Assembly (NCBI GenBank): GCA_964639855.1
Contig: CAZXFY010000013.1
Coordinates: 6,756 to 70,755, forward strand
Direction: 5' to 3'
From: an uncultured Stakelama sp.
Lineage (GTDB): Bacteria; Pseudomonadota; Alphaproteobacteria; Sphingomonadales; Sphingomonadaceae
DNA length: 64,000 bases
A program made the translations under genes and the position numbers. Under the pieces are notes generated by a model. The model searched no databases and had not been told where the DNA came from. It saw nothing but the letters and a program-made list of their open reading frames with translations. This document shows, piece by piece, positions 15,829 to 33,828 of this stretch. Positions within the stretch are counted from its first letter, which is position 1. Every line of letters starts with the position of its first letter.

Positions 15829-15880
15829 GGGCGTGCCTATACGCGGATGCGCAGCGGGCGGCTAGGGCGCGTAGGTGGCC

Positions 15881-15914: not shown

Positions 15915-15936
15915 CTGAAGCGAATCCGCCTGCCGA

Positions 15937-17142: not shown

Positions 17143-17274
17143 GTCATGTTCCCCATTTCCATGAATCCAGGAAAGACAAGCTAACATAACCGGCGACCTG
17201 TCGCCAAGGCAGCACTATTCGTCGTCGAAGAACGGCTTTGGATTATCTTTGCGATCGGCAATCGCGGCGATCAA

Positions 17275-18475: not shown

Positions 18476-18545
18476 GATCCCGATGTAATGCGATATCCTG
18501 CGCGGGCCAAGGGCGACCGACTCGCAATAAGCGGTCGCCCAATTA

Positions 18546-18610
18546 CGTCATGCCAGCGAAAGCTGGTATCGTTCAGTCGTTGCGAGACCCCGGCTTTCGC
18601 TAGGGTGACG
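18546..18610. repeat. Short CGTC-type REP dimer
   Basis: cgtcatgccagcgaaagctggtatc ... gaccccggctttcgctagggtgacg. Confidence 0.92.
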
Positions 18611-18615
18611 GCATG

Positions 18616-19032
18616 TTACCGCGATTTGCGGCGCTTGGTGCCCAGGCCGATCTTCTTGGCGAGGTTGCGGCGCTGCTCGGCGTAATTGGGGGCGACCATC
18701 GGATAATCGACGGGCAGGTTCCATTTCTGCCGATATTGTTCGGGCGTCATCTGATAGTGCGTCATCAGATGCCGCTTGAGCATCTTGAGCTTCTTGCCGT
18801 CCTCGAGGCAGACGATGTAGTCGGGTTTCACAGAAGAACGGATCGAAACCGCGGGCTCTTGCTTCACTTCGGGCTCTTCGACGGGCTTGGTGAGCCCGGC
18901 GAGCGCGCCGTGGACGTTCTGGATGATGAGCGGAAGGTCCGAAACCGCGACGCTGTTGTTGCTCACGTGCGCGGCGACAATATCCGCGGTCAGCGTGACC
19001 AGTGTTTCCTGCATGTCGTTGTCGGTATCCAT
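18616..19032 (-). CDS. mucR: Ros/MucR zinc-finger transcriptional regulator
   Basis: [48 protein letters not shown]. Start at ATG 19032. Confidence 0.95.
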
Positions 19033-19139
19033 GACGTTCCTTTCGACCCTTACTGCGCCTGCGGGAAAAAACAGGCATGCGGTGTCTATCGAGCCGTTCG
19101 GGCCCAAGTGCAAGGGGGTTTCGGCCGCGATGTCGCGAA

Positions 19140-19616
19140 TCAACCGAGCGCGCGCGCAAAGGTGTGCGCGTCGAACAACTTGCCGCCCGCGCCGCGATAG
19201 TAATTTCGGCGTTCACCGATTTTCTCGAATCCCGCCTTGCGATACAGCATCACCGCTTCGTTGCCCGCGCGCACTTCGAGATGGAGCTTCCTGGCGCCTT
19301 GCGTTTCGCATGCGGCGATCGCCGCGCGGAGCAGCGCGCTGCCGATTCCGCGCCGCCGCTTCTTCGGATCGACCGCGAGCAGCAGCAGCTCGGCTTCGTC
19401 GAGGATCGCGCGGGTAATGGCGAAGCCGACGGGGGCGCCGTCCAGCTCGGCGATGGTCAGCGTGACGCCGGGCATCGCCATCACGCCCGTGCATTGGCTG
19501 CGTGTCCATGCCTCGCCGTAGCGCGGATCGAACGCGGCCTGGATGATCGGCTCGACGGTCGCGAGATCGGCGATCCCGCCGCTGCGCAACGTGACGTGGG
19601 TCAGCACGGTGCTCAT
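19140..19616 (-). CDS. rimI: Ribosomal protein S18 alanine N-acetyltransferase (GNAT)
   Basis: [28 protein letters not shown]...RRNYY; follows tsaB. Confidence 0.85.
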
Positions 19617-20230
19617 GCGCGCGCGCTCAGCGGCACCGCGTCGGGCGCGCGGCCGTAGATCGGGCTGGGCGGCAGCGCGCGGCAGTCGGGCGGAAGCAGC
19701 CGGGCGTCGGCGGCGCGCGGAAGCGCTTCGATCGCGTCGCCTGTCTCGCCGAGCCAGCGAATGCCGCTGCCGACCGCGCGGCGCCCGTCGAGCGCGGCCA
19801 GCGCCGCATCGGGCCTCAGCGAGAAGAGCGGTCCGTCGTCCGCGAAGGGCTGCGAAAAGGGCTGCATGAACAGCTCGCCATGCCCGCCCTCGAGCACGAC
19901 CGCAAGGCGATCGAGCGCGGGATCGCGCGCGAATTCGGCGGCGGCGACGAGCGCGGTCGAGGAATAGCCGCGCGCCCCGACACCCCAGCCGAGCGCCAGC
20001 GCGCGCGCCGCGGCGATCCCGACGCGAACGCCGGTGAAGCTGCCCGGCCCGACATCGACGAGGATCGCGCCGGCGCGCCCGCCTTCCGGCAGCGCGGCGA
20101 TCATCGGCAGCAGCCGCTCGGCATGGCCCCGGCCCACGATCTCGTGGCGCTCGGCGTGCACGGCATCCCCCTCGATCAGCGCGACCGAGCAGGCGGCGGT
20201 GGCGGTGTCGATGACGAGAGTTCTGGCCAT
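19613..20230 (-). CDS. tsaB: t6A biosynthesis protein TsaB
   Basis: LVIDTAT..CSVAL, HAERLLPMI, GPGSFTGVRVG. Start at ATG 20230. Confidence 0.93.
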   Translation of the reverse strand: MARTLVIDTATAACSVALIEGDAVHAERHEIVGRGHAERLLPMIAALPEGGRAGAILVDVGPGSFTGVRVGIAAARALALGWGVGARGYSSTALVAAAEFARDPALDRLAVVLEGGHGELFMQPFSQPFADDGPLFSLRPDAALAALDGRRAVGSGIRWLGETGDAIEALPRAADARLLPPDCRALPPSPIYGRAPDAVPLSARA

Positions 20231-20235
20231 ATACC

Positions 20236-20299
20236 CGTCATGCCGGCGAAAGCCGGCATCTTTCCGTTTCAAGAGACCCCAGCTTTCGCCGGGGTGACG
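20236..20299. repeat. Short CGTC-type REP dimer immediately upstream of tsaB
   Basis: cgtcatgccggcgaaagccggcatc ... gaccccagctttcgccggggtgacg. Confidence 0.92.
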
Positions 20300-20306
20300 C
20301 GAGGCG

Positions 20307-20906
20307 TCAATCGATCCGGTTGAACCGCTCGAACTCGGGCCGCGGGCTGCGGCCGAAGATCGTGGCGGGATCGCCGTGGCCCAGGGTCGAGATGAAGTTG
20401 GATGTCACATGCGGCGTATCGGCGAAGAAGGCGGCGTCGACCGCGGCGTTGTCGAACCCCGACATCGGCCCCGTGTCGAGCCCGATCGCGCGGGCGGCGA
20501 TGATGAAATAGGCGCCCTGGAGCGAGGAATTGCGGAACGCATGCGCCCGCCGCAGCGCAAGCTTGTCGTCGCCCGCGAACCAGCTCTTCGCGTCGGTATG
20601 CGGGAACAGGAAGGGCAGGTGCTCGTGAAATTCCTCGTCCATGCCGATGATCACGGCGGCGGGCGCCTTCCTGATCTTGTCGGGATTGGTCCCGGTCGCG
20701 AGCGCGGCGAGCTTGTCCTTCGCCTCCTGCGACAACAGCCAGACGAAGCGCGCGGGCTGCTGATTGGCCGAGGTCGGCCCCATCTTGAGCAGGTCGTAGA
20801 TCTGCCGGATTTCGGCTTCGGTGACGGGCTCGTCGGTATAGCCGTTATAGGTGCGCGCGGTGCGGAAGATCGTGTCGAGCGCCGCGTCGGAAAGCTTCTC
20901 GCCCAT
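20307..20906 (-). CDS. Nitroreductase family, malonic semialdehyde reductase (RutE-like)
   Basis: FRTARTYN, GPTSANQQPARF, NSSLQGAYFI, GLDTGPMSGFD, GRSPRPEF. Confidence 0.88.
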   Translation of the reverse strand: MGEKLSDAALDTIFRTARTYNGYTDEPVTEAEIRQIYDLLKMGPTSANQQPARFVWLLSQEAKDKLAALATGTNPDKIRKAPAAVIIGMDEEFHEHLPFLFPHTDAKSWFAGDDKLALRRAHAFRNSSLQGAYFIIAARAIGLDTGPMSGFDNAAVDAAFFADTPHVTSNFISTLGHGDPATIFGRSPRPEFERFNRID

Positions 20907-20942
20907 TCTTTTCCCTGTTTTTCGTGTCGGCAGCGGCGCGGA

Positions 20943-21518
20943 TCAGACCGCGCGAACCTCGGTGACCTCGGGCACGTAATATTTGAGCAATTGCTCGATG
21001 CCGTTCTTCAGGGTCGCGGTCGAGGAGGGGCAGCCGGAGCAGGCGCCGTGCATGGTGAGGAACACCTTCCCCTTGTCGAACCCGCGAAAGACGATGTCGC
21101 CGCCGTCATTGGCGACCGCGGGGCGCACGCGCGTGTCGATCAGATCCTTGATCTGGACGATGATGTCCTCGTCTTCCGGATCGTTGCCGAAACTCGCCTC
21201 CTCGACGGGGACGGCGATGCCGGCGGCCGAGCCGGGCTTGAACAGCGGCATGTTGGCCGAGAAATGGTCGAGCAGGATCGCAAGCACGTCGGGCTTGAGC
21301 GTGGTCCATGCGACGCCCGGCGCCGCCGTCACCGAGACGAAATTCCCGCCGAAGAACACGCCCGTCACATCGCCCAGGCCGAACAATGCCTCGGCCAGCG
21401 GCGACGCTTCGGCCTCCTCGGGACTGGCGAAATCGCGCGTGCCGGCCTCCATCACCTTGCGGCCGGGCAGGAACTTGAGCGTCGCCGGATTGGGCGTGGT
21501 TTCGGTCTCGATCAGCAT
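20943..21518 (-). CDS. NifU/Nfu-family Fe-S cluster carrier
   Basis: IETETTPNPATLKF, VRPAVANDGGDI, GACSGCPSS (CxxC). Alternative start at 21527. Confidence 0.92.
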   Translation of the reverse strand: MLIETETTPNPATLKFLPGRKVMEAGTRDFASPEEAEASPLAEALFGLGDVTGVFFGGNFVSVTAAPGVAWTTLKPDVLAILLDHFSANMPLFKPGSAAGIAVPVEEASFGNDPEDEDIIVQIKDLIDTRVRPAVANDGGDIVFRGFDKGKVFLTMHGACSGCPSSTATLKNGIEQLLKYYVPEVTEVRAV

Positions 21519-21604
21519 ATATGCCATGTGGCGGCGATGGCGGTGCGGATCAAGGGGAACCGGGGCGGGGTCTCGCGCGTCGCATTGCCGAAGGAGGAAC
21601 GATC

Positions 21605-21952
21605 ATGGCGCAAGCGAAGAAGACGGGCGGAGACAAGGGCGGCGTCGCCGACAGAATGCGCGACGCGGGCGAGAAGATGCGCGCCTCGGGCGAGCGGGCG
21701 GCCGAACGCGGCACCGAACTCGGCATGAAGCTGCTCGACCAGGCCGAGCAGAACACGCGCGAGGCGTTCGCGGCGATGCGCAAGGCGGCCAGGGCACGCG
21801 ACCTTTCGGAGGTGATGCACGTCCAGGGCGACTATCTGCGCGAGCAGGGCAGCCGATCGATGGCCCAGGCGCGCGAGGTCGGCGAGATGATCGCCAATTT
21901 CGGCCGCGACACGCTCAACCGGATGACGGGCCGCGACGAGGACAAGAAGTAA
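21605..21952 (+). CDS. Phasin-like protein
   Basis: Small helical protein with AEQNTREAFAAMRKAARARDLSEVMHVQGDYLREQ; SD ggagg before ATG 21605. Confidence 0.65.
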   Translation: MAQAKKTGGDKGGVADRMRDAGEKMRASGERAAERGTELGMKLLDQAEQNTREAFAAMRKAARARDLSEVMHVQGDYLREQGSRSMAQAREVGEMIANFGRDTLNRMTGRDEDKK

Positions 21953-22022
21953 AAGCGCTCTCCACTCTTCCCGCATCGGTGTGCTAGCAGGGCGCATCAC
22001 ACCATGAAGCGGGAGAACGGGT

Positions 22023-23969
22023 ATGCGGGTTCGGCTTGGTGGGGCGGCGCTCGCCCTGGTTCTGGCGGGGGCGAGCGGCCTCGCGGTCGCGCAGCAGGTG
22101 CCGGCGGACATCTGGCCGCCCAAGGGCGACATCCCCGAAAACTTCACCCCGCCCACCGAGGGCCGCGATTACATCAAGCGCGAGGTGATGATCCCGATGC
22201 GCGACGGGGTGAAGCTCCACACCGTCATCGTCATCCCCAAGGGGGCGACCAATGCACCGATCATCCTGACGCGCACGCCCTACAACGCCTCCGGCCGGGC
22301 CGAGCGCTCGGACTCCGATTCGATGCTCGCGACGCTGCCGCTCGCCGACGAGCCGTTCGTGAAGGCGGGCTATATCCGCGTCTATCAGGACGTGCGCGGC
22401 AAATACGGATCGGAAGGCGTCTATGTCGTGACGCGTCCGGTGAAGGGGCCGCTCAATCCGACCGACACCGATCACGTCACCGACGCTTACGACACGATCG
22501 ACTGGCTGGTGAACAAGAAGAACCTGCCGCAATCGAACGGCAAGGTCGGCATGATCGGCTCGTCCTACGAAGGCTTCACCGTCGTCATGGCGCTGCTCCA
22601 CCCGCACCCGGCATTGAAGGCCGCGGTGCCCGAAAGCCCGATGGTCGATGGCTGGATGGGCGACGACTGGTTCCATTACGGCGCCTTCCGCCTCGCCAAC
22701 ATCGCCTGGATCGGCGGGCAGACGGGCTACAAGGGGCCGGGCAAGGCGCCGTCCACCGGCGGCTATGACGATTACGACAATTTCCGCCACGGCTCGGCCG
22801 GGGATTGGGCGAAGAAATCGGGTTACGACCAGCTTCCCTTCTGGAAGCGGACGAGCGAGCATCCGGCCTACGACGCCTATTGGCAGGGCCAGGCGCTCGA
22901 CAAGCTCGTCGCCGCCAATCCCTCGAATGTCCCCACGCTCTGGGAACAGGGCCTGTGGGATCAGGAGGACATGTACGGCGCGATCCATAGCTGGGAAGCG
23001 CTCAAGGCCGCGGGGCACATGGGCAACAACCATATCGTCATGGGCCCGTGGCGGCACAGCCAGATCAATCGCGAGGGCCGCAGCCTCGGCCCGTTCGAAT
23101 GGAATGGCGACACCGCCGCGCAATTCCGCGAGGATATGGTGCTGCCCTTCTTCAACCATTATCTGAAGGACGGCCCGGCGCCGAACCTGCCGCCGGCGAT
23201 CATCTACAATACCGGCGAGAACCACTGGGACCGGTTGAGCACCTGGCCGCTCGCCTGTTTCGAAGGCTGCCCCAATCCGTTGAAGCCGATCTATCTCCAG
23301 GCCGATGGCGGGCTGGGCTTCGCGCCCGCGGCGCCGGGCGGCGACAGCTACGTCTCCGATCCCGCCAAGCCCGTCCCGCATCTGCCGCGCCCGGTCAATT
23401 TCCGCGACGGCCGCTGGGGGGATTGGCTGGTGCAGGATCAGCGCAGCTATGACGGGCGCCCCGACGTGATGACCTATCAGACGCCGGTGCTGACCCGGCC
23501 TGTGCGCGTCTCGGGTGCGCCGATCGCGGACATCTTCGCCAGGACGACCGGCACCGACGGCGATTTCGTCGTCAAGGTGATCGATGTCTTCCCGCCCGAA
23601 AACGCGACCGATCCGAAAATGGGCGGCTATCAGCTCGCGATGAGCATGGACATTTTCCGCGGCCGCTACCGCGACAGCTTCGAGCATCCCTCGCCGATCC
23701 CGGCGGGCGAGGTTCAGGAATACAAGTTCCGCCTGCCGACGGTGAATCACGTCTTCCAGCCCGGCCACCGGATCATGGTGCAGATCCAGTCGACGCTGTT
23801 CCCGGTCTATGACCGCAATCCGCAGAAATACGTGCCCAACATCTTCTTCGCCAAGCCCGAGGATTATCAGAAGGCCACGATCACGCTGATGCGCGGGGGC
23901 GAGCAGGGGAGCAAAGTGTGGCTCCCGGTCGTGCCACTCGATCCCGCTGCGGTGATCGGGGAGGAGTGA
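22023..23969 (+). CDS. CocE/NonD family hydrolase (alpha-amino acid ester hydrolase-like), secreted
   Basis: Signal peptide, RTPY, catalytic GSSYEG, GPWRH. Confidence 0.92.
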   Translation: MRVRLGGAALALVLAGASGLAVAQQVPADIWPPKGDIPENFTPPTEGRDYIKREVMIPMRDGVKLHTVIVIPKGATNAPIILTRTPYNASGRAERSDSDSMLATLPLADEPFVKAGYIRVYQDVRGKYGSEGVYVVTRPVKGPLNPTDTDHVTDAYDTIDWLVNKKNLPQSNGKVGMIGSSYEGFTVVMALLHPHPALKAAVPESPMVDGWMGDDWFHYGAFRLANIAWIGGQTGYKGPGKAPSTGGYDDYDNFRHGSAGDWAKKSGYDQLPFWKRTSEHPAYDAYWQGQALDKLVAANPSNVPTLWEQGLWDQEDMYGAIHSWEALKAAGHMGNNHIVMGPWRHSQINREGRSLGPFEWNGDTAAQFREDMVLPFFNHYLKDGPAPNLPPAIIYNTGENHWDRLSTWPLACFEGCPNPLKPIYLQADGGLGFAPAAPGGDSYVSDPAKPVPHLPRPVNFRDGRWGDWLVQDQRSYDGRPDVMTYQTPVLTRPVRVSGAPIADIFARTTGTDGDFVVKVIDVFPPENATDPKMGGYQLAMSMDIFRGRYRDSFEHPSPIPAGEVQEYKFRLPTVNHVFQPGHRIMVQIQSTLFPVYDRNPQKYVPNIFFAKPEDYQKATITLMRGGEQGSKVWLPVVPLDPAAVIGEE

Positions 23970-23994
23970 GACGGCAACAGATCGAACCAAGCGC

Positions 23995-24115
23995 CGTCAT
24001 GCTGAGCGTGTTTCGGCATCCATCATGGTTTTGGGGCAATGAGTTGTCGTTGCTGCGCCTCCATCCATGCCAAGGAAGAAGCATGGATGGACCTTGAAAC
24101 AAGTTCAGGGTGACG
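23995..24115. repeat. Long CGTC-type REP dimer
   Basis: cgtcatgctgagcgtgtttcggcatcc ... ggaccttgaaacaagttcagggtgacg; same subfamily as 42394-42492. Confidence 0.88.
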
Positions 24116-24136
24116 GCGGGGGTATAATCCACCATC

Positions 24137-24180
24137 AAGAAAAAAGGGCGGCCCCCGCGCGGGAGCCGCCCCTTCTTTTG
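24137..24180. terminator. Bidirectional-looking terminator downstream of rplL
   Basis: aagaaaaaa-gggcggc...gccgccc-cttctttt. Confidence 0.75.
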
Positions 24181-24223
24181 CTCTCGCTCCCGGATCGGTC
24201 CGGGACGAAGCAAGCCTTGCGGC

Positions 24224-24607
24224 TTACTTCAGCTCGACCGTGCCGCCCGCGGCCTCGATCTGCGCCTTGAGCTTTTCGGCCTCGTCCTTCGACACGCCTT
24301 CCTTGACGGCCTTGGGCGCGCCCTCGACCAGCGCCTTCGCCTCGGTGAGGCCGAGGCCGGTGATCGCGCGGACCTCCTTGATGACGTTGATCTTCTTGCC
24401 GCCGTCGCCGGTCAGGATGACGTCGAACTCGTCCTTCGCCTCGGCAGCGGCCTCGCCACCGCCGGCGCCGCCGGCCGCGGGGCCGGCAACCGCGACCGCA
24501 GCCGCGGCCGAAACGCCCCACTTCTCTTCGAGAAGCTTGGCAAGGTCCGCCGCCTCGAGGACGGTCAGTTCGGAAAGCTGGTCAACGAGCTTGTTCAGGT
24601 CTGCCAT
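24224..24607 (-). CDS. rplL: 50S ribosomal protein L7/L12
   Basis: [44 protein letters not shown]. Confidence 0.98.
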
Positions 24608-24698: not shown

Positions 24699-25214
24699 TC
24701 AGGCCGCTTCCTTGGCGCCCTGGGCGGCGAACACGCGCGCGAGCTTCGATGCCGGAGCGGTCGAAAGCTGGGCGATCTTGGTCGCGGGCGCCTGGACGAG
24801 GCCCATGATCTTGGCGCGCAGCTCGTCGAGCGACGGCAGCGAGGCGAGTGCGTTCACACCCTTGACGTCGAGGATCGTCGCGCCCATCGCCCCGCCCACG
24901 ATTTCCAACTTGTCGTTGGTCTTCGCGAAATCCGTCACCACCTTGGCGGCGGCGACCGGATCGGACGAGGTTGCAAGGCCTACCGGGCCGGTCAGCAGGT
25001 CGCTGATCCCGGCATAATCGGTGTCCTCGAGCGCGATCTTGGCAAGCCGGTTCTTCGCGACCTTGTAGCTGGCGCCGGCCTCACGCATCTTGTTACGAAG
25101 CTCGGTCGATTGCGCGACGGTGAGCCCGAGGTTGCGGGTGACGACCACCACGCCGACCTCGTTGAAGGTGCGGTTCAGCTCGGCAACGGCCTCGGTCTTT
25201 TGAGCACGATCCAT
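24699..25214 (-). CDS. rplJ: 50S ribosomal protein L10
   Basis: [38 protein letters not shown]. Start at ATG 25214 with SD ggag. Confidence 0.97.
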
Positions 25215-25364
25215 GCCATTCTCCACGTTTGGCGATCCCGAAGGATCACCGGTTACACGCCGGGCAAAGGGCAAGGGCCCTGCACCCGGTTTGTCCAGCG
25301 ATGGGGAATGGGCGCCGCATGGCAGCGGCAGACCGGCGCGCGGGGCGGCCGGTGAAATCCTTTT

Positions 25365-25588: not shown

Positions 25589-25623
25589 AAAAAAAAGCCC
25601 CGCGATCATCGATCGCGGGGCTT
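25589..25623 (-). terminator. Terminator of small-protein copy 1
   Basis: aagccccgcgatc-atc-gatcgcggggctt with an A8 run. Confidence 0.85.
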
Positions 25624-25643
25624 CCATATCGGTTGCGCGTCGA

Positions 25644-25934
25644 TCAGCCCGCGCTGTCGGGCTCGTCGTCGCCGTCGGTCGCGACGATGACGCCGGCGAT
25701 AACCGCACCGGCTGCGAGCACGCCGACGCCGATCGCAGCGCCCTGGCTGATCGCGTTGCTCTTCTTCTTGAGCTTGGTCGCGGTCCGGAGGCCGTTGGTC
25801 GGTGCCTGAGCCGTCTGCACTCCCGCGACGGGGAGCGCGCTGCTCGACCGCGTGGCGTCGGCCGCGAAGGCCGCCGTCGAGGTGAGCAGGCAGGCAATAG
25901 CACCAAGGCCGGCGGCGTACTTTCTCCGAGTCAT
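25644..25934 (-). CDS. Small secreted/membrane protein, paralog 1 of 4 (96 aa)
   Basis: MTRRKYAAGLGAIACLLTSTAAFA|ADATRS...GLRTATKLKKKSNA-hydrophobic segment-DGDDEPDSAG; SD gggag. Confidence 0.88.
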   Translation of the reverse strand: MTRRKYAAGLGAIACLLTSTAAFAADATRSSSALPVAGVQTAQAPTNGLRTATKLKKKSNAISQGAAIGVGVLAAGAVIAGVIVATDGDDEPDSAG

Positions 25935-25985
25935 CGTCGTCTCCCTTTGGATAGGTTGCAGGGCGAAATACTCCTCTGGCCGGTA

Positions 25986-26010
25986 AACGCAAGGGGTTTT
26001 TGCTTGTTCC
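25986..26010 (-). promoter_or_regulatory. EcfG/sigma-T-type promoter of copy 1
   Basis: GGAAC-AAGCAAAAACCCCTTG(16)-CGTT, 52 nt upstream of the ATG. Confidence 0.75.
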
Positions 26011-26204
26011 CCATCCATATGGGATGAATCGGTGCGCCCGGGCCACATGCCGAGAGGCGCGGCATCGCAACGCGCAACGTCAACGGGCGGCATGCTCCGG
26101 CGGGCATTCGGGACCAGCACGTCGCGCGCATCGTCAGAACGATCAATTACCGATCGGCGGGGCTGCGCAGCGTCGTTCTTCGGCGCCCGGCTCGAACGGA
26201 TGCG

Positions 26205-26236
26205 AAAGGCCCTGCGATCGCGTGGATCGCAGGGCC
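26205..26236 (-). terminator. Terminator-like hairpin of copy 2
   Basis: ggccctgcgatc-gcgtg-gatcgcagggcc, a perfect 12-bp stem with only a short A run. Confidence 0.7.
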
Positions 26237-26267
26237 AGCGTTTTCCGACCGGTGCCTGTGCGTCGGA

Positions 26268-26570
26268 TCAGCCCGGGCTGTCGGGTCCGTCGTCGTCGTC
26301 ATCGAGTGCGACGTAGACGCCCGTTCCGACCGCGGCGATCCCGATGATGCTGAGCGCGATCACGCCGTCCTGGCCCAATGCGTTGCTCTTCTTCTTGAGC
26401 TTGGTCGCGGTCCGAAGACCGTTGACCGGCGCGGGCGCCGTCTGCGCGATCGGGACGGGGAGCGCGCTGCTCGACCGCGTGGCGTCGGCCGCGAAGGCCG
26501 CCGTCGAGGTGAGCAGGCAAGCAATCGCTCCAAGGCCGGCGGCATACATTCTCGTCGTGCGAATCATCAT
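26268..26570 (-). CDS. Small secreted/membrane protein, paralog 2 of 4 (100 aa)
   Basis: Same leader, GLRTATKLKKKSNA, hydrophobic segment, and DDDDDGPDSPG. Confidence 0.88.
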   Translation of the reverse strand: MMIRTTRMYAAGLGAIACLLTSTAAFAADATRSSSALPVPIAQTAPAPVNGLRTATKLKKKSNALGQDGVIALSIIGIAAVGTGVYVALDDDDDGPDSPG

Positions 26571-26617
26571 CGTCTCCCTTTCCGATGGGGTCGTCGGGCG
26601 GAACTCCTGATCGCGAT

Positions 26618-26642
26618 AACGCGATGAGTCCAGGCTTGTTCC
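26618..26642 (-). promoter_or_regulatory. EcfG/sigma-T-type promoter of copy 2
   Basis: GGAAC-AAGCCTGGACTCATCG(16)-CGTT, 48 nt upstream of the ATG. Confidence 0.75.
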
Positions 26643-26657
26643 ACGCGATCAGGGTGT

Positions 26658-26688
26658 AAAAAGCCCTGCGATGGCGCCACCGCAGGGC
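26658..26688 (-). terminator. Terminator of copy 3
   Basis: aaaaa-gccctgcg...cgcagggc. Confidence 0.7.
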
Positions 26689-26711
26689 CCTTGAGAATCG
26701 CTTGCGCCCGA

Positions 26712-27002
26712 TCAGCCGGGGCTGTCGGCATCGTCGTCGTCGGCCACGACGACGATCGCGGCCCCGACCGCCACCGCGCCCAGGATGCCGACGGCGATCA
26801 TCGCATCCCGGTTCAGCGCGTTGCTCTTCTTCTTGAGCGTGGTCGAAGACCGAAGCCCTTGCGTCGGCGCATGCGTCCCCGGTTGCGCAACCGGATTGAG
26901 GAGCGCGCTGCCCGATCGCGTCGCATCGGCAGCGAAGGCTGCGGTGGAGGCGAGCAGGCACGTGATCGCTCCCAGGCCGGCGGCGTACTTTGTAAGGGTC
27001 AT
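26712..27002 (-). CDS. Small secreted/membrane protein, paralog 3 of 4 (96 aa)
   Basis: KYAAGLGAITCLLASTAAFA, GLRSSTTLKKKSNA, hydrophobic segment, and DDDDADSPG. Confidence 0.88.
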   Translation of the reverse strand: MTLTKYAAGLGAITCLLASTAAFAADATRSGSALLNPVAQPGTHAPTQGLRSSTTLKKKSNALNRDAMIAVGILGAVAVGAAIVVVADDDDADSPG

Positions 27003-27049
27003 CGTCGTCTCCCGTTGGTTGGCTCCAGAGCCTAGTTCATCCCCACGTA

Positions 27050-27074
27050 AACGCGAAGGGTTTTCGGTGGTTCC
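27050..27074 (-). promoter_or_regulatory. EcfG/sigma-T-type promoter of copy 3
   Basis: GGAAC-CACCGAAAACCCTTCG(16)-CGTT, 48 nt upstream of the ATG. Confidence 0.75.
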
Positions 27075-27165
27075 ACCTCGTTTCGCGACGAAAACGACCC
27101 TTCGGTTCGTGCGATCCCGCGCGGCGTCATTGCCGGAATGCCGCGGCGGGAGGCGCAGGAATACG

Positions 27166-27198
27166 AAAAAGGCCCCGCGATCTTCCGACAGCGGGGCC
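27166..27198 (-). terminator. Terminator of copy 4
   Basis: aaaaa-ggccccgc...gcggggcc. Confidence 0.7.
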
Positions 27199-27221
27199 CC
27201 TTGAATTCGCTCGTGGACCGA

Positions 27222-27506
27222 TCAGCCCGCGCTGTCGGGCTCGTCGTCCTGCGTCGCGACCAGAATCCCGCCTCCCACGACGACCGCGCCGATGAGGCCG
27301 ACGCCGATCCATTCGTTTCCGGTGAGCTTGCTCTTCTTCTCGAGCTTGGTCGCGGTCCGGACGCTGCTGGTCGGCGCCGCCTGAACCTGTGCCGCCGGGG
27401 CGGGCAGCGCGCTGGCCGACCGCGTGGCGTCGGCCGCAAAGGCCGCCGTCGAGGTGAGCAGACACGCGATCGCACCGAGCCCGGCCGCGTACTTCATCCG
27501 AGTCAT
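27222..27506 (-). CDS. Small secreted/membrane protein, paralog 4 of 4 (94 aa)
   Basis: MTRMKYAAGLGAIACLLTSTAAFA, VRTATKLEKKSKL, hydrophobic segment, and QDDEPDSAG. Confidence 0.88.
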   Translation of the reverse strand: MTRMKYAAGLGAIACLLTSTAAFAADATRSASALPAPAAQVQAAPTSSVRTATKLEKKSKLTGNEWIGVGLIGAVVVGGGILVATQDDEPDSAG

Positions 27507-27704
27507 TTGGTTTCCCCTTTTCTTGAATATATTGGATGGCGGGATACTCGTCTCGGCGGCGGACGCAAGGGGTTTCTGCTTGTGCGCCATCGATTTGGCA
27601 AACCACCGGTGCAGTCATGTCACATCCGCAACGTCCCCCCGTCGCTCGGGCAAACCGCTCTTCCGCATTGCAGGGCGGCGGGCGTCGATGATAGCCGGCA
27701 CGGC

Positions 27705-28709
27705 ATGAAGAGGGGTCGAGTTCGCCTGTTCGTCTGCCTTCTGGGCGTATGCGTGATGGTCGCGCCGGTCGGTGGCGGCGCCCGCGCGCATCCGCCCGAG
27801 CGCGATCGGCAGGCGCTGTTCGCCGGGTTGCGCGCCGCGGACCTGCGGCTGGCGACGATCGCCTATCGGCTGATGGTCGCCAATGTCGCGCTCTGCGATC
27901 GGCGCGCGGGCGCGACCGGCCTCGTTCTCCACGCGCTCGATTCGTACGATTCGGATGTCCGGGCCGATGCACGGCGCTATTTCCGATTCGAAACGCCGAT
28001 CGCGATCGAGGCTGTCGTTGCGGGAAGCCCGGCCGCGCGCGCCGGTGCCGCCGCCGACCAGTCGGTCGCCGCGATCGACGGCGCCTCCACGCGCGAGGGC
28101 GGGCTGTCGCTCGACGAGGTCCGCGCCCGCCTGGCCGCGATTCCGCCGCGGGGCGCGCTCTCGCTCGCGGTGACGAGCGGCGGGCGCGCGCACCGGCTGA
28201 CGATCGCCGCGGTTCCCGCCTGCGCCGGCCGCGCCGAGCTCAAGCTCACCGACGACCTCAACGCCGCGACCGACGGGCTCGTGCTCCAGGTCAATTCGGC
28301 GATGCTCAACGTGATCGGCGAGGATGACGAGCTCGCCGCGCTCGTCGCGCACGAGCTCGCGCATATTGTGCTCCGCCATCCCGAGCGGCTCACCGCGGCG
28401 CATGTCTCGCGCGGCATGTTCAGCATCTTCGGCCGCAACGCGCGGCTGATCCGCAGGACCGAGATCGAGGCCGACCGGCTGAGCGTCGTGCTGCTCGCCA
28501 ATGCGGGCTACGATCCGCGCGCCGCCGTGCGATTGTGGCGCCGCCACGGCGAGGCGCTGGGCGACGGCGGCCTGCTCGCGGGCACGACGCATCTCGACCT
28601 CGAGGACCGGATCGCGCTGGTCGAGCGCGAGGCGGCGCTGATCCCGCCCGACGGCCCGCGCCCGATCGTGCCCCAGTGGATCGAGAGCCGCACGCAGCCG
28701 CTCGACTGA
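27705..28709 (+). CDS. Secreted PDZ + M48-family zinc metallopeptidase
   Basis: Signal peptide, PDZ-like IEAVVAGSPAARAG, HELAH zinc motif, EIEADR third-ligand motif, AGYDP, and a THx motif. Start at ATG 27705. Confidence 0.85.
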   Translation: MKRGRVRLFVCLLGVCVMVAPVGGGARAHPPERDRQALFAGLRAADLRLATIAYRLMVANVALCDRRAGATGLVLHALDSYDSDVRADARRYFRFETPIAIEAVVAGSPAARAGAAADQSVAAIDGASTREGGLSLDEVRARLAAIPPRGALSLAVTSGGRAHRLTIAAVPACAGRAELKLTDDLNAATDGLVLQVNSAMLNVIGEDDELAALVAHELAHIVLRHPERLTAAHVSRGMFSIFGRNARLIRRTEIEADRLSVVLLANAGYDPRAAVRLWRRHGEALGDGGLLAGTTHLDLEDRIALVEREAALIPPDGPRPIVPQWIESRTQPLD

Positions 28710-28775
28710 CGCGACGCGCTTGACGCGCACGCGCCTTCCCCCGCACCGTCGAACGCGAAGAAGGAGAGGGGGCCG

Positions 28776-30320
28776 ATGATCCGAACGATGCTCTTCGCGC
28801 TCGCCGCGCTGCTGTTCGCGGGTGCCGTGCAGGCGGAGAAGCCGCTGCCGCGCCTCGATGGGCGCCACCTGATCGTGGACGGCGCGCCCTGGCTGCTGCT
28901 GGGCGGCGAGCTTGCCAATTCGAGCGCATCGAGCCGCGCCTGGATGGCGCCGCGCTGGGCCCGGCTCGCGGCGCTTCACCTCAACACCGTGCTGATGCCG
29001 GTGAGCTGGGAGCTGATCGAGCCCGAGGAAGGCCGCTTCGATTTCGCCGCTGTCGATGGCCTCCTCGCCGATGCCCGCGCGCACGATCTGCGCGTCGTGC
29101 TGCTCTGGTTCGGAAGCTGGAAGAATTCGATGTCGAGCTACGTTCCCGCCTGGGTGAAGCGCGATACCGCGCGCTTTCCCCGCGCGCGCACCGCGGACGG
29201 GGCGCCGATCGAGATGCTCTCCCCCTTCGCCCCCGCGAACCGACAGGCGGACGCCCGCGCCTTTGCCGCCTTGATGGCGCACCTCGCCCGAACCGATCCC
29301 GGCCGCACGGTGCTGATGGTCCAGGTCGAGAACGAGATCGGCATGATCCCCGAACCGCGCGATCGCTCCCCGCTCGCGCGCGCCGCCTGGGCGAAGCCCG
29401 TGCCCGAGGGGCTGCCCGGCGCGGGCAAGAGCTGGGCGGAAGCCTATGGCGGCGAGGCGGACGAGGCGTTCATGGCCTGGGCCTATGCCCGCTATACAGG
29501 GCAGGTCGCCGCCGCGGGCAAGCGCGCCTATCCGCTCCCGATGTACGTCAACGCCGCGCTTCCGCGCCCCGGCGCCGCGCCCGGCAGCGGCTATCCCGCC
29601 GCCGGCCCGCTCCCGAAGCTCGCGGCGATCTGGCGCGCGGCGGCGCCCTCGATCGATTTCCTCGCACCCGACATCTATTTCCCCAATTTCGTCGAATGGA
29701 CGACGCGTTACGCCGCGCTCGGCGGGCCCTGGTTCATCCCCGAAGCGAACCGCGCCGGCGCACCCGAGGCGTGCGCGAACGCGCTCTACGCGATCGGCGC
29801 GCTGGATGCGTTCGGCTTCAGCCCCTTCTCGATCGACAGCCTCGCGCCTGGGAAGGACGCCGGCCTCGCCGAATGCTACGCCATGCTCGCGGGCATCGCC
29901 CCGCTGATCCTCGATCGCCAGGGCACCGGCCGCCTCGCCGCCGTCCGCGCGCCCGTCGCCTTCGACGGCACCGCCGATCTCGCCAACCAGGTGTTCACGA
30001 TGGGCGAAACGCGGATCACCGCGCACCTGATCGATCCATGGACCCCGCGCGACGCGCAGCACCCCGAAACCCACGGCGCGATCGTCCTCCAGCTCGGACC
30101 CGACGCCTATCTGATGGCCGGCCGCGGCGTCACCTTCACCTTCGCCCCCGCGGACGGGGAGGGGAAGACGGGCATCCTCGCGATCGACGAGGGCCGCTAC
30201 GAAGACGGCCGCTGGAATCCCGGCCGCCGCCTCAACGGCGACGAAAGCCATCAGGGCCGCCACCTTCGTCTCCCGCCCGACGGCTTCTCGATCCAGCGCG
30301 TGCGGCTGTATCGGTATTAA
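28776..30320 (+). CDS. GH35-like beta-galactosidase with C-terminal DUF5597-type domain, secreted
   Basis: GGELANSSAS, LLWFGSWKNSMSSYVPAWVK, MVQVENEIG, FLAPDIY, WFIPE, NGDESHQG. Confidence 0.82.
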   Translation: MIRTMLFALAALLFAGAVQAEKPLPRLDGRHLIVDGAPWLLLGGELANSSASSRAWMAPRWARLAALHLNTVLMPVSWELIEPEEGRFDFAAVDGLLADARAHDLRVVLLWFGSWKNSMSSYVPAWVKRDTARFPRARTADGAPIEMLSPFAPANRQADARAFAALMAHLARTDPGRTVLMVQVENEIGMIPEPRDRSPLARAAWAKPVPEGLPGAGKSWAEAYGGEADEAFMAWAYARYTGQVAAAGKRAYPLPMYVNAALPRPGAAPGSGYPAAGPLPKLAAIWRAAAPSIDFLAPDIYFPNFVEWTTRYAALGGPWFIPEANRAGAPEACANALYAIGALDAFGFSPFSIDSLAPGKDAGLAECYAMLAGIAPLILDRQGTGRLAAVRAPVAFDGTADLANQVFTMGETRITAHLIDPWTPRDAQHPETHGAIVLQLGPDAYLMAGRGVTFTFAPADGEGKTGILAIDEGRYEDGRWNPGRRLNGDESHQGRHLRLPPDGFSIQRVRLYRY

Positions 30321-30325
30321 CGTCC

Positions 30326-30422
30326 CGTCACCCCGGACGTGTTCCGGGGTCAACCGGAGCACACAAACGGCAAGCCATTGATCGTGCGCAACGGTGGATG
30401 CCGGAACGAGTCCGGTATGACG
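30326..30422. repeat. Long CGTC-type REP dimer
   Basis: cgtcaccccggacgtgttccggggtc ... ggatgccggaacgagtccggtatgacg. Confidence 0.88.
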
Positions 30423-30520
30423 GCGGAGGAGATGGACTCTCGGATTTCGCAGCTCCTGCCTCCGCAGGAGCACAGGGACCCGATTCCGATCTGATCCGAA
30501 TCGGCCGGCGGCAGAAGCGC

Positions 30521-30545
30521 GGAACACCGCTCCCTTCCACGGGTT
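30521..30545 (+). promoter_or_regulatory. Candidate EcfG-type promoter of the AI-2E gene
   Basis: GGAAC-N17-GTT, about 30 nt upstream of ATG 30576. Confidence 0.45.
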
Positions 30546-30575
30546 GGCACCACGCCGCCAACGAAACGATCCCGG

Positions 30576-31613
30576 ATGACCGCACCCGCCTCCTCCAACC
30601 GTCTGCGCGACAGGATGCTCGCCGCGATCGCGCTGGTGGCGGTGTTCGCCGCGCTCAAGGCGAGCTACCCGGTCGCGATGCCCGCCTTGTTCGCGCTCGT
30701 CATCGTGCTGGGCGCGTGGCCGCTCGACGCGCTGCTCAGGCGATGGCTGCCCGGCTGGATCGCGACGATGCTCACCATCCTCGTGCTCGTCGCCCTGCTC
30801 GCCGGCTTCGGCTGGGCGTTGTTCCTCGCGAGCCGCGAGACGGTGGAAGTGCTCGCGGACAAGTGGCCCGACATCCAGCGCCGCGGCGCGGCCGTCGCCG
30901 ATCGGCTCGGCGTGCCGCCGCCGCGGCTCGACGGCGCGGCGGCGCGCGAGCAGGTGACCGGCGTCGCCCGGCCGGTCGCGAGCGCGATCTACGGCATCGT
31001 CACCTATATCGGCTTCATCGGCATCCTCGTCATCTTCGGCCTGCCGGAAGTGCCGCGGCTGCGCGCGCGGCTCTCGGCCGCGTTCGACAAGGGCACGCGG
31101 CACGAGCTGGTCGGAATCGCGGCCGAATCGTCGCGCCAGATCCGCAGCTATTTCGCGGTGACGCTGTTCACCAGCGTGCTCACCGGCCTCGGCTCCGCCG
31201 CCGTCGCCTGGGCCACCGGGCTCGATCTCGCGCTCGTCTGGGGGCTGCTCAACTTCGTGCTCAACTTCGTGCCGGTGATCGGCAACATCGTCGGCATCGT
31301 CCCGCCGGCGCTCTACGCGATCCTCCAGTTCGACGGGATCACGATGCCGCTCGTCGTCTTCATCGCCTTCGCCGTGCTCCAGCTCGTCATCAGCAACATC
31401 GTCTATCCGCTGCTCCAGGGGCGCCGGCTCGCCATCTCGCCGCTGGTGATCGTGCTCGCGATGGCGTTCTGGAGCTGGCTGTGGGGCATTGCCGGCGCGC
31501 TGCTCGCGGTGCCGCTCACCGCCGCGATCATCATCGTGTGCGAACAATCCGAGCGCACCCGCTGGTTCGCCGAGCTCCTCACCCGCAGCCCCCCGCCGCG
31601 CGTCGGGCGTTAG
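30576..31613 (+). CDS. AI-2E family (PerM-like) transporter
   Basis: Multi-TM protein, LNFVLNFVPVIG, GRRLAISP, WLWGIAGALLAVP. Confidence 0.9.
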   Translation: MTAPASSNRLRDRMLAAIALVAVFAALKASYPVAMPALFALVIVLGAWPLDALLRRWLPGWIATMLTILVLVALLAGFGWALFLASRETVEVLADKWPDIQRRGAAVADRLGVPPPRLDGAAAREQVTGVARPVASAIYGIVTYIGFIGILVIFGLPEVPRLRARLSAAFDKGTRHELVGIAAESSRQIRSYFAVTLFTSVLTGLGSAAVAWATGLDLALVWGLLNFVLNFVPVIGNIVGIVPPALYAILQFDGITMPLVVFIAFAVLQLVISNIVYPLLQGRRLAISPLVIVLAMAFWSWLWGIAGALLAVPLTAAIIIVCEQSERTRWFAELLTRSPPPRVGR

Positions 31614-31801
31614 AGTCGTTTTCAGCTAAGCTGAAGCGGCACCGGCCCGCTCCCCCACCCGACCACCCACGGCAGTATCATATGGGTGGTCGGGTGGGGG
31701 AGTGGGCGGAAGCGCCCAAGGTTCCGGCGATGCGCAGCATCGTTGGAATAGCGCTGGAGGGTGGTGCCGATACTGTTTCAGCTCTGCTGAAACAGAGTCT
31801 A
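31611..31801. mobile_element. MITE-like element with TAG-ended imperfect terminal inverted repeats and a central hairpin
   Basis: Left end tagagtcgttttcagctaagctgaa; right end (reverse complement) tagactctgtttcagcagagctgaa; central stem ctcccccacccgaccaccca/tgggtggtcgggtgggggag. Confidence 0.7.
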
Positions 31802-33280
31802 GGCTCCGGCGGGCAGCGGCTGCACGTCCGGCTCGCTTCGCCGGTGCGTGACGCCGTCGATGCCGATCAGCACCAGCGCGAGCGCGATCAGCGTCGCGTC
31901 GATTACCAGCACCGCCGCCGGCGCCGTCAGCGCCAGCAGCAGGTGGAGGATCGCGGTTGCGCCGATCATCGCCCCCAGCACCCGCCGCAGCGTCACCGGC
32001 GACAGCGCATCGGGCCGCACCATGCATCCGACGATCGCCACTGCCAGCCCGATCCAGAACAGTGCCGCGAACGGCGCCTTGGGCCCGATCGCGAAGCGCA
32101 TCCAGCAGGCGGCGACGATCAGGATCGGCACGCCCCACACCACCGCCTTCCAGAAGCCCTCGAGCCGCGGGCTCGGCAGCCCGCGCCGCGCGCGCTTCTG
32201 CAGCCACAGCGACATGCCCGTCGCGCTGACCACGCACATCGCCAGCCCGAACAGCACATAGGCCAGTTCTACCGGAATCCCGCCGAAATTGCCGAAATGC
32301 AGCTTGTAGGTCGATGCCGCCGCCTGCCGCCCCAGCGGCCCGTCGGAAAGCCCCACCTTGTCCAGATAATGGCCCGCCGCGTCGAACCGATAGGTCTCGC
32401 CATAGATCAGCCGCCGCGCATGATCGGCGAGCACCAGCACGCGCTGCCCCGCGGTGCCCGGCTCCTCGATCGTTACATAGGTCGGGCGCACGCTCGGAAA
32501 GCGGGCCTGCATCACCTCGAGCGCGGCCGCGACATCGGCGACCGGCGCGGGCGTGGGATCGGCCTTGGGCTCGCCGCCGAAGATCGCGCCGTATGTCTCG
32601 ATCAGGTCGCCGCCGTGATAGGCCTTGGCGATCATCGTCGCGCCGATCGACGACAGCCCGATCGCCGCCCCCGTGATCGCGATCGCCAGCGTGAAGGGCA
32701 GGGTCCACACCCCCAGCCGGTTGTGCCAATCGGCCTGCGCGAGCTGCCGCCCGCCGCGCACGCGCATCCGGAAGGCGTCGCGGAAGATGCGCGGGTGCGC
32801 GATCACGCCGGTGATCGCGAGCGCCGCCAGCATACTCCCCAGCGCGCCGACGATCAGGATGCCGATCGTGATCGGCAGGTTGAGGTTGATGTGAAGCGCC
32901 AGCAGGAACTCGGTCCAGCCGTGCGCCTCGGGCGCGACGATGTTGCCCGCCACATCGACATAATGCGCGCCGTGATCGGTGGTGACGACCGTGCGCGGCA
33001 GGTCGTCGGTGGGCAGATGGACGAAGAGGTGCTCGGACGCGGGCTTGCCGGCATCGGCGGCGAGCGCCGATTCGACCGTGCGCTGCACCGCCTGCGGCGA
33101 GATCACCGGCGTCTCGGCGACCAGCGGCTGTTCCCAGCGCTGCCAATGCTCGAACACCACCGCGAGCGTGCCGGAGAGCGCGATCACATACATCAGCGCG
33201 CCCGCGATCAGCCCGATCGCCGCGTGCCCCGCCAGCGCCGAATCGATCAGCCGCGCGACGCCGCGGCGCGGCGCGCTCAC
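31799..33280 (-). CDS. PepSY-associated TM-helix (iron-regulated) membrane protein
   Basis: GHAAIGL..GALMYVIALSG, WTEFLLALHINL, DWHNRLGVWTLPF, YKLHFGNFGG, CVVSATGMSLWL. The GTG start overlaps the upstream TGA. Confidence 0.88.
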   Translation of the reverse strand: MSAPRRGVARLIDSALAGHAAIGLIAGALMYVIALSGTLAVVFEHWQRWEQPLVAETPVISPQAVQRTVESALAADAGKPASEHLFVHLPTDDLPRTVVTTDHGAHYVDVAGNIVAPEAHGWTEFLLALHINLNLPITIGILIVGALGSMLAALAITGVIAHPRIFRDAFRMRVRGGRQLAQADWHNRLGVWTLPFTLAIAITGAAIGLSSIGATMIAKAYHGGDLIETYGAIFGGEPKADPTPAPVADVAAALEVMQARFPSVRPTYVTIEEPGTAGQRVLVLADHARRLIYGETYRFDAAGHYLDKVGLSDGPLGRQAAASTYKLHFGNFGGIPVELAYVLFGLAMCVVSATGMSLWLQKRARRGLPSPRLEGFWKAVVWGVPILIVAACWMRFAIGPKAPFAALFWIGLAVAIVGCMVRPDALSPVTLRRVLGAMIGATAILHLLLALTAPAAVLVIDATLIALALVLIGIDGVTHRRSEPDVQPLPAGA

Positions 33281-33828
33281 AGCGGCCACCACATGACGAG
33301 GCCGATCGCGGCGCAGATCAGCGCGGGCGCGATCATTCGTGCCGGGCCGGGCTTCATGCTCTGGATCGCGGCGAGGATGGCCCAGGCGACGGGCTGCACG
33401 AACAGCGCGAGCGCGAGGCTGTCGGCCTCGACCCACCCCGCGCGGCGCGCCAGCGCGTCCGCGCCGAACGCCAGCACCGCGCTCGCGACGAGGCCGACCG
33501 GCACGATCAGCAGGAAAACGGCGATCCGCCGCGCGAGCCCGCGCCAGCGCCAGCGCGGCGGGGTGACGGTGGGGATGGCGCGGGGGCTGCGCTTGTCGCG
33601 GGCCGGCTCGGCGATCCCGGCGCGCGCGAGGATCGCCATCGCCGCCGCCATCGCGGCGGAGCTGCCGATCGCCAGCCCCCACGCCCCCGCGGTCACGGCC
33701 AGCGCGATCAAGGCGGCGCCGATCAGCGTCCAGCCCGCGATGATCCAGCCGCGCCGCCCGCCCCAGCCGCGTCGCAGTGCCGCGACGCCCAGCGCGGCGC
33801 CCAGCCCCGGCAGCGCGATCTCGATCAC
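33277..33828 (-). CDS. Hypothetical multi-TM protein of the iron-uptake operon (183 aa)
   Basis: GTGA-coupled at both ends; about 6 hydrophobic segments. Confidence 0.75.
   Translation of the reverse strand: MIEIALPGLGAALGVAALRRGWGGRRGWIIAGWTLIGAALIALAVTAGAWGLAIGSSAAMAAAMAILARAGIAEPARDKRSPRAIPTVTPPRWRWRGLARRIAVFLLIVPVGLVASAVLAFGADALARRAGWVEADSLALALFVQPVAWAILAAIQSMKPGPARMIAPALICAAIGLVMWWPL

Follow-up and report, generated by a model that had tools for sequence, protein, structure and literature searches.

A PDZ-bearing M48 metallopeptidase gene and a family of small-protein genes are evolutionarily coupled in Sphingomonadaceae

The DNA analyzed here, referred to as the window, is a stretch of 64,000 nucleotides from contig CAZXFY010000013.1 of an uncultured Stakelama sp. 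(Sphingomonadaceae). It contains a gene for a metallopeptidase of family M48 with a PDZ domain, located head-to-head with an array of four genes coding for small proteins of one family. The peptidase and the small family are evolutionarily coupled, as indicated by their co-occurrence, their joint absence and their recurrent adjacency. A previous examination of the nucleotide sequence, here called the sequence-only reading, had described a secreted protein with a PDZ-like segment and the motifs HELAH and EIEADR, encoded 198 bp from the start of array copy 4. This description was borne out: copy 4 starts at 27506 (- strand) and the peptidase gene at ATG 27705 (+ strand). The features of the peptidase gene and of the region separating it from the array are as follows.

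27705..28709, + strand: gene for the exported PDZ-M48 metallopeptidase, 334 amino acids, stop codon included (open reading frame and start, Pfam M48, relatives, AlphaFold model)
27705..27788, + strand: predicted signal peptide, amino acids 1-28, cleavage after ARA (sequence inspection, low model confidence, leaders of relatives)
27981..28211, + strand: HtrA-type PDZ domain, about amino acids 93-169, with the loop F93-R94-F95 (PDZ_6, family profile, Foldseek, alignment)
28350..28364, + strand: HELAH zinc-binding and catalytic motif, amino acids 216-220 (H216, E217, H220), invariant in 74 relatives
28461..28478, + strand: EIEADR, region of the third zinc ligand, amino acids 253-258, with E253 and D257 invariant (sequence, alignment of 74 relatives)
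28590..28610, + strand: H296-L-D-L-E-D-R302, corresponding to the HPx4R autoinhibitory plug of M48 enzymes but with Leu for Pro; R302 is invariant and H296 nearly so
27507..27704, no strand: divergent intergenic spacer between copy 4 and the peptidase gene, 198 bp (gene starts on either side)

The + strand open reading frame extends from 27138 to 28709, and ATG 27705 is the sole start that yields an N-terminal export signal. The predicted N-terminus from this start is MKRGRVRLFVCLLGVCVMVAPVGGGARA, followed after the cleavage site by HP. The public gene call P0001 (317 amino acids) begins 17 codons after ATG 27705, so that the signal peptide would be deprived of its n- and h-regions; the longer form was preferred because it is supported by the relatives. 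In the AlphaFold model the predicted local distance difference test (pLDDT) score is <50 over most of amino acids 1-19, and equivalent hydrophobic leaders are found at the N-termini of relatives. The signal peptide recognized by eye, the low-confidence N-terminus of the model and the invariant Cys64/Cys173 pair suggest that the peptidase is secreted, and the leader and the cysteine pair would fit a periplasmic location.

The protein belongs to peptidase family M48. It scores 48.6 bits against Pfam Peptidase_M48 (PF01435; cut-off 20.3), and a profile of its family matches the M48 structure 3c37 (E=1.5e-14) and BepA (1e-8). A total of 617 relatives were found at E<=1e-5, and the named organisms among the 120 listed are Sphingomonas or Hephaestia, with the proteins called 'M48 family metallopeptidase'. 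The residues that are invariant in the alignment of 74 relatives include C64, C173, H216, E217, H220, H225, E253, D257 and R302, and H296 is nearly so. The AlphaFold model (pLDDT 91.6, predicted template modeling score 0.89) matched M48 cores (3c37, BepA 6ait, 6sar) and HtrA-type PDZ domains separately in Foldseek, and none of the solved structures among the matches listed covered both parts. Three characterized M48 types were considered and rejected. As BepA (NCBIfam NF052400), the protein scores 36 bits against a cut-off of 570, lacks the TPR and stops about 35 amino acids past the plug. As an M48 lipoprotein of the LoiP/YcaL type (NF052399), it scores 16 bits against 365, and neither Cys11 nor Cys16 is preceded by G, A or S at position -1. 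As HtpX, it scores 10.6 bits against a cut-off of 285, and the signal peptide is its sole hydrophobic segment. An HPx4R autoinhibitory plug has been described for BepA and the M48 family (PMC13655028). In the peptidase from the window the proline of the plug is replaced by leucine while the histidine and arginine are kept; its family has T-H-x-S-x-x-x-R as consensus here. Judging from BepA and DegS, and considering that H296 and R302 are retained, the enzyme is probably latent and in need of an activating event.

The PDZ domain scores below the Pfam threshold in the peptidase from the window (PDZ_6, 21.9 bits at amino acids 101-147, cut-off 27). We nonetheless take it as real because many relatives have above-threshold PDZ matches on record, DegQ and DegP PDZ domains are hit by the family profile (E=2.7e-11), and the model matches HtrA-type PDZ domains. 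The Foldseek matches to this part include DegP, DegQ, DegS, HtrA2 and CtpA, with isolated HtrA PDZ domains reaching a target TM-score of about 0.7. In the model, the domain (there about residues 96-169) is inserted between beta-strands of the protease domain, ahead of the catalytic helix. The carboxylate-binding loop of the family reads R86...F93-G94-F95, with glycine in 48 of 74 relatives, and in the window it reads F-R-F; position 119 is Asp in 68 of the 74 and Gln in the window. As judged by these substitutions, the PDZ domain from the window is a divergent member of its own family with a seemingly degenerate carboxylate loop.

The small proteins encoded by the array are arranged on the opposite strand.

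27222..27506, - strand: small-protein copy 4, 94 amino acids, tail ending EPDSAG (open reading frame, alignment, Hessa dG)
26712..27002, - strand: small-protein copy 3, 96 amino acids (open reading frame, alignment)
26268..26570, - strand: small-protein copy 2, 100 amino acids (open reading frame, alignment)
25644..25934, - strand: small-protein copy 1, 96 amino acids (open reading frame, alignment)

A fifth full-length copy is located elsewhere in the genome (G000:C17:2432-2716, + strand), 65-70% identical to the array copies, and a sixth, weak match lies at G000:C18:14208-14486 (- strand; E 1.5e-7). The four array copies and the fifth copy share one plan. An N-terminal segment resembling a signal peptide (Hessa dG +1.3 to +5.9) comes first. 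It is followed by about 30-45 residues rich in Ala, Ser, Thr and Pro that include a conserved Arg, then by a patch of basic residues (KKKS), a membrane span rich in Gly, Ala, Val and Ile (Hessa dG -3.8 to +0.5) and an acidic tail of 8-12 residues. In other genera, RGRGRGG or RNRVKKRR stands in place of KKKS. Members of the family have about 70-100 amino acids, and the best-conserved positions among 137 of them are the signal-peptidase site, one Arg, one Gly of the span and the C-terminal P-x-S-[P/A/N](G), of which the DS[AP]G end of the array proteins is a local form. The extreme C-terminus is the most conserved part: in the P-x-S-x motif, all of 130 aligned members have the Ser, and the Pro is almost invariant. 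The proteins end in P in 81 cases, G in 36, N in 13 and A in 5. Because a cleavable signal peptide precedes a credible membrane span, the tail would be cytoplasmic and the N-terminal part accessible to a protease. The small proteins are thus predicted to be bitopic, with the stalk and the basic patch in the periplasm and the acidic tail in the cytoplasm.

The small proteins match no model in Pfam or NCBIfam. Every listed match with a source name carries the label 'hypothetical protein', and no Pfam domain is recorded for any of the matches. Two other identities were tried and rejected. The small proteins are not lipoproteins, as a Cys in the leader is restricted to the lineage of the window and the relatives, which lack the Cys, have signal-peptidase I sites of the form A-x-A. 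They were also considered as RiPPs (peptides made on the ribosome and modified after translation) with an acidic tail modified by Asp-modifying enzymes of the SmaO/SmaX type (PMC12186529), and no 2-oxoglutarate oxygenase or HD-domain gene was found among the annotated neighbors.

Searches of relatives, of the genus and of the family returned full-length matches to both the peptidase and the small family from Sphingomonadaceae only. Among 201 genomes of the genus, the small family was found in 181 (90%) and the peptidase in 175. Both were present in 172 genomes, the small family alone in nine, the peptidase alone in three and neither in 17 (Fisher p=1.5e-15, a value that ignores kinship). At the family level (121 genomes, 105 genera), both were found in 63 genomes, the small family alone in one, the peptidase alone in 13 and neither in 44; searches for short proteins are less sensitive. 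The 17 genomes with neither gene do not form one clade that lacks both because they are scattered on a tree of a single gene, ThrRS, from 59 genomes of the genus, in which well-supported branches force at least nine changes.

Physical linkage is also recurrent. Counted among the best 150 matches listed, so that the numbers are lower bounds, a small gene lies upstream and divergent of at least 16 peptidase orthologs within 700 bp and of at least 46 within 2 kb. On the peptidase tree, the small gene is divergent and adjacent in 11 of 11 loci of the clade that includes the window and in eight of nine of a second clade, and adjacency was lost mainly in one derived subclade. Other arrangements exist. 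In three genomes (G002, G027, G028) the small gene comes first and the peptidase gene follows on the same strand. In three other genera (G255, G268, G350) the peptidase gene comes first, both genes again sharing a strand, and in a fourth genus (G273) the two are divergent. Roughly half of the genus, and other genera as well, thus have the two genes adjacent, in three distinct orders. The sequence-only reading had regarded adjacency as the only evidence for a relationship between the genes; to it can now be added co-occurrence, scattered joint absence and the three gene orders. The synteny and profiling that it had suggested as a check did not refute the link, although only about one third to one half of the orthologous peptidases have a small gene within 2 kb. 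Co-occurrence is strong. What the genomes contain is co-occurrence with conserved linkage rather than an exclusive one-to-one relation of a protease and its precursor.

A third gene belongs to this neighborhood in most genomes. It codes for a calcineurin-like phosphoesterase of the PPP type with the motifs GDxHG, GDxxDRG and GNHE and no signal peptide, which is predicted to be cytoplasmic. A small-family gene lies within 400 bp on the same strand of 80 of the best 150 phosphoesterase orthologs of the genus, and in at least 75 of those 80 the order is phosphoesterase followed by small gene, the two being separated by a median of about 205 bp. The peptidase gene lies within 400 bp of 46 of the 150 and is divergent in 43. 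Example loci are L056:2752-3513 (- strand) and L045, L048, L053, L039, L080, L082, L085 and L086, among others. In the 97 genomes with all three genes listed, these are all clustered in 38, the phosphoesterase and small genes alone are clustered in 44, the peptidase and small genes alone in seven, which include the genome of the window, and none in seven; in the remaining one the peptidase gene is near both of the others, which are >2 kb apart. A phosphoesterase ortholog is also missing from 15 of the 17 genomes without the small gene and the peptidase. The phosphoesterase, and not the peptidase, is thus the most constant neighbor of the small gene in the genus, and the ancestral layout was likely peptidase gene in one direction and, divergent from it, phosphoesterase gene followed by small gene. 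In the genome of the window the phosphoesterase genes are unlinked and outside the window (G000:C2:95371-96108 and G000:C51:7165-7863). The notion that the peptidase is dedicated to the array is not upheld by these data, nor by the closest relative (G097), where only one small gene is present at the locus, nor by the family copies, most of which are unlinked to a peptidase gene.

In the sequence-only reading, the small proteins could present their DS[AP]G end as a ligand to the PDZ domain, and cleavage would fall in the KKKS motif or the hydrophobic core. The extreme conservation of the tail means that something recognizes it, and the family PDZ domain has the canonical R...F-G-F carboxylate-binding loop, both of which speak for docking. 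HtrA-type and canonical PDZ domains favor ligands with a hydrophobic last residue, and the small proteins mostly end in P, G or N. In addition, the tail is predicted to lie in the cytoplasm, behind the signal peptide and the span, and the PDZ domain in the periplasm; the loop from the window reads F-R-F and D119 is Q. The conserved tail would be equally well or better explained by the adjoining cytoplasmic phosphoesterase. Docking of this kind is consequently very unlikely. Among the peptidases, R86 is kept in 30 of 34 with an adjacent small gene and in 12 of 21 without one, a weak difference that ignores kinship, and R86 or F93 of the PDZ loop is more often missing in peptidases that lack an adjacent small gene, kinship being again ignored.

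We propose instead, as a tentative reading to which we assign somewhat less than an even chance, that a periplasmic, probably latent PDZ-M48 endopeptidase acts on the periplasmic, membrane-proximal part of the small bitopic proteins. The peptidase in the periplasm, the small bitopic protein and, in most genomes, the cytoplasmic PPP-type phosphoesterase would form a conserved envelope gene set of the Sphingomonadaceae. The small protein would have a signal peptide that is cleaved off, a periplasmic part of about 30-45 residues with the basic patch at its end, one span and an acidic tail of about 10 residues. Its membrane-proximal stalk would be cut by the peptidase, for turnover or as a site-1-type cleavage; cleavage near KKKS is topologically possible because the stalk and the basic patch are predicted to face the periplasm. 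The PDZ domain would serve as a gate or a substrate tether and would not read the C-terminus of the small proteins, and the plug residue H296 would keep the enzyme latent, as judged from BepA and DegS. In the lineage of the window, the phosphoesterase gene would have come to lie elsewhere and a single ancestral small gene would have given rise to four tandem copies, three of them with EcfG-type promoters.

Several observations weigh against this proposal. About half of the genus has the peptidase with no small gene within 2 kb, and in 44 of the 97 three-gene genomes the small gene stays by the phosphoesterase, away from the peptidase. Genomes carry one to six copies of the small family, and most of these paralogs, the fifth copy included, are unlinked to the peptidase. 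At the family level, 13 of 76 peptidase-bearing genomes have no detectable small gene. The charges that flank the span of the small protein reverse the positive-inside rule (basic outside, acidic inside), which leaves the topology uncertain. A single deletion can remove two neighboring genes at once, which makes their joint absence weaker evidence than it appears, and a divergent pair with a common promoter region is intrinsically hard to separate. Finally, a wecB-like epimerase, a UDP-sugar dehydrogenase, rfbA, an NAD-epimerase, a sugar transferase, an FkpA-like isomerase, rpsU and cysS are recurrent neighbors of the peptidase (in gene maps of relatives filtered by GC1>GC2), and given the recurrence of polysaccharide genes, the FkpA-like isomerase, rpsU and cysS, part of the synteny is plain inheritance.

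The deletion argument, the recurrence of those other neighbors and the 44 genomes in which the peptidase is apart from the small gene also favor an explanation without direct interaction, as does the fact that adjacency tracks the peptidase phylogeny with few changes. The peptidase would then perform general quality control in the periplasm, as BepA, LoiP or YcaL do, and the small genes would simply be old neighbors in a chromosomal region related to the envelope. This explanation is unlikely, although it retains a sizeable share of our confidence. It does not readily account for the presence of the peptidase in 63 of the 64 small-gene-bearing genomes at the family level, for joint absence on at least nine separate branches, or for the rebuilding of adjacency in three gene orders, other genera included. 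Furthermore, the pair is intact in the genome of the window even though the flank on the small-gene side has wholly changed. Surface-polysaccharide genes were seen beside the peptidase in many Sphingomonas (L039, L045, L048, L056, L058, L064, L066, L068).

The evidence of coupling would serve equally well if the small protein were not a substrate but a partner (membrane anchor, activator or inhibitor) of a latent PDZ-M48 enzyme at the inner membrane. Partner dependence has parallels in Prc with NlpI and CtpA with LbcA, periplasmic PDZ proteases with envelope partners. The retained plug residues H296 and R302, which make an activating event probable, point in the same direction, and so does the M48 protease JspA of Sinorhizobium meliloti, a lipoprotein of 497 amino acids with a LysM domain that works with the small lipoprotein LppA (PMC10659215). 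A partner role is nevertheless quite improbable. The small gene is almost never found without the peptidase and the peptidase does occur alone, an asymmetry that may be due in part to the sensitivity of searches for short proteins. Moreover, one to six copies, tandem amplification and stress promoters suit a client or effector better than a stoichiometric adaptor.

The substrate proposal can be extended to the phosphoesterase. The periplasmic protease, the single-pass small protein and the cytoplasmic phosphoesterase would be spread over three compartments, and the small protein would be the only part that touches both sides of the membrane. Peptidase, small protein and phosphoesterase might then constitute one trans-envelope device of the Sphingomonadaceae in which the small protein is worked from both sides. 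On the cytoplasmic side, the phosphoesterase would have a part in modifying and de-modifying the invariant C-terminal Ser of the acidic P-x-S-P tail. On the periplasmic side, the M48 peptidase, latched by its plug and gated by its PDZ domain, would cut the stalk, and what happens to either side would depend on the state of the opposite one. In the genome of the window this device would have been rewired, with the phosphoesterase unlinked and the small gene fourfold under general-stress promoters. The extended proposal is rather unlikely.

The remaining features of the locus concern the array, its promoters and its flanks.

25986..26010 (copy 1), 26618-26642 (copy 2) and 27050-27074 (copy 3), - strand: GGAAC-N16-CGTT (EcfG-type) boxes (motif search)
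25593..25625, - strand: strong intrinsic-terminator-like hairpin, 15-bp stem with nine GC pairs and a T run, right after copy 1, between the array and rplJ
28776..30320, + strand: exported GH35/GH42-like glycosidase with DUF5597, 66 bp past the peptidase stop, a flank also present in G097; context only

The window has six matches to GGAAC-N16-CGTT, compared with 1.36 expected, and three of them are the boxes before copies 1-3. Upstream of the peptidase gene, GGAAC-N15-18-CGTT has no match on the + strand, and EcfG control of the peptidase is without support; a search of 27507-27704 for a sigma-70-like promoter found none. Among 33 small genes checked, the strict EcfG motif was found only in the genome of the window, G097 and G173. 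EcfG control was therefore rejected as a trait of the small family, the motif being present in only two of the relatives examined. The stress-induced module of the sequence-only reading would thus hold for array copies 1-3, which have EcfG-type boxes, and fails for the peptidase, which has none, and for the relatives, in which such boxes are rare. No terminator-like signal was found after copies 2-4, and the array may be read through from several internal promoters into the one terminator after copy 1.

In G097, the closest relative, a single small gene with an intact GGAAC-N16-CGTT box occupies the same position, 206 bp from the peptidase gene. When L072 (G097:C12:1-14000) was compared with window positions 25600-33700, the PepSY protein, AI-2E transporter, GH35-like glycosidase, peptidase and one small gene were found in conserved order; rplJ and rplL are not beside the peptidase locus of G097. 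Given this single gene in G097, the four-copy array is most likely a recent tandem amplification of one gene; a less simple alternative is that G097 has lost copies. In the window, the break in synteny coincides with the amplification to four copies, on the side of the small genes. Local duplication is recurrent and not special to the window, since tandem pairs of small genes are common in other genera (G264:C1:2052747-2053448; G298:C1:423195-423844 and 2183154-2183851; G303:C1:743640-744267; G327:C2:200504-201051; L092, from G326). The fifth copy, on another contig, has no EcfG box. Its neighbors, named from their translations by inspection, are a cation antiporter and a GH16-like protein, whose genes flank it, and infC and thrS; no protease gene was seen among them.

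The other neighbors in the window were rejected as members of the unit. Neither rplJ, rplL, the GH35-like glycosidase, the AI-2E transporter nor the PepSY protein is near the peptidase gene in 35 relatives, and G097 alone keeps the flank on the peptidase side. The rplJ (24699-25274) and rplL (24224-24607) genes are not followed by rpoB, and no open reading frame of rpoB size exists on either strand in the 14 kb downstream (window 10000-24200).

Comparison with known systems places the peptidase among envelope proteases without equating it with any of them. With E. coli BepA (YfgC) it shares export, an M48 domain with HExxH, the downstream Glu in E-x-x-A-D and, of the plug, the His and Arg (H296...R302). 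BepA, however, has a C-terminal TPR and works at the BAM complex, whereas the peptidase from the window has no TPR and has a PDZ domain inserted in its N-terminal sheet. The best analogy for the module is DegS with RseA (and DegP/DegQ), in which a periplasmic protease gated by an HtrA-type PDZ domain targets the periplasmic part of a single-pass protein. DegS is a serine protease, in contrast to the zinc M48 fold found here, and small proteins with a cleavable signal peptide and about 10 cytoplasmic residues cannot be anti-sigma factors of the RseA kind. JspA/LppA is alike in that an M48 protease in the envelope of an alphaproteobacterium has an additional binding domain and works with a small envelope protein; that domain is LysM and not PDZ, LppA is a lipoprotein and not bitopic, and no sign of orthology was seen. 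Prc/NlpI and CtpA/LbcA also combine a PDZ domain beside a periplasmic protease domain with dependence on a small partner, and the PDZ domain of CtpA-LbcA is among the fold matches, but Prc and CtpA are S41 serine proteases that read non-polar C-termini and the candidate partner tail here is polar or Pro/Gly and probably cytoplasmic. RseP, an M50 site-2 protease, is likewise a zinc protease with PDZ domains, and the family profile matches the PDZ tandem of its Aquifex homologue; unlike the intramembrane RseP with its tandem PDZ, the peptidase from the window has no span beyond the signal peptide. The phosphoesterase shares GDxHG, GDxxDRG and GNHE with PrpA/PrpB and ApaH, with weak matches that fall below every NCBIfam equivalog cut-off (58.5 bits compared with 176 for ApaH and 29 compared with 332 for PrpA/B).

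The M48 proteases BepA, HtpX, Oma1 and Ste24 are major quality-control enzymes of envelopes and membranes, and their activation is only now being worked out. No description of a PDZ-M48 enzyme, or of this small family in sphingomonads, was found in the literature that could be searched, and the locus points to an undescribed envelope module in these bacteria. It joins a PDZ-bearing M48 enzyme to an evolutionarily linked candidate client family and, in most genomes, a linked cytoplasmic phosphoesterase. If the link is not functional, the locus would amount to an ordinary uncharacterized M48 peptidase beside stress-induced small membrane proteins. If it is functional, it would provide a zinc-protease counterpart to PDZ-gated periplasmic proteolysis of the DegS-RseA type and a role for a widespread orphan family of small proteins, as part of a three-gene system in genetically tractable plant- and soil-associated bacteria.

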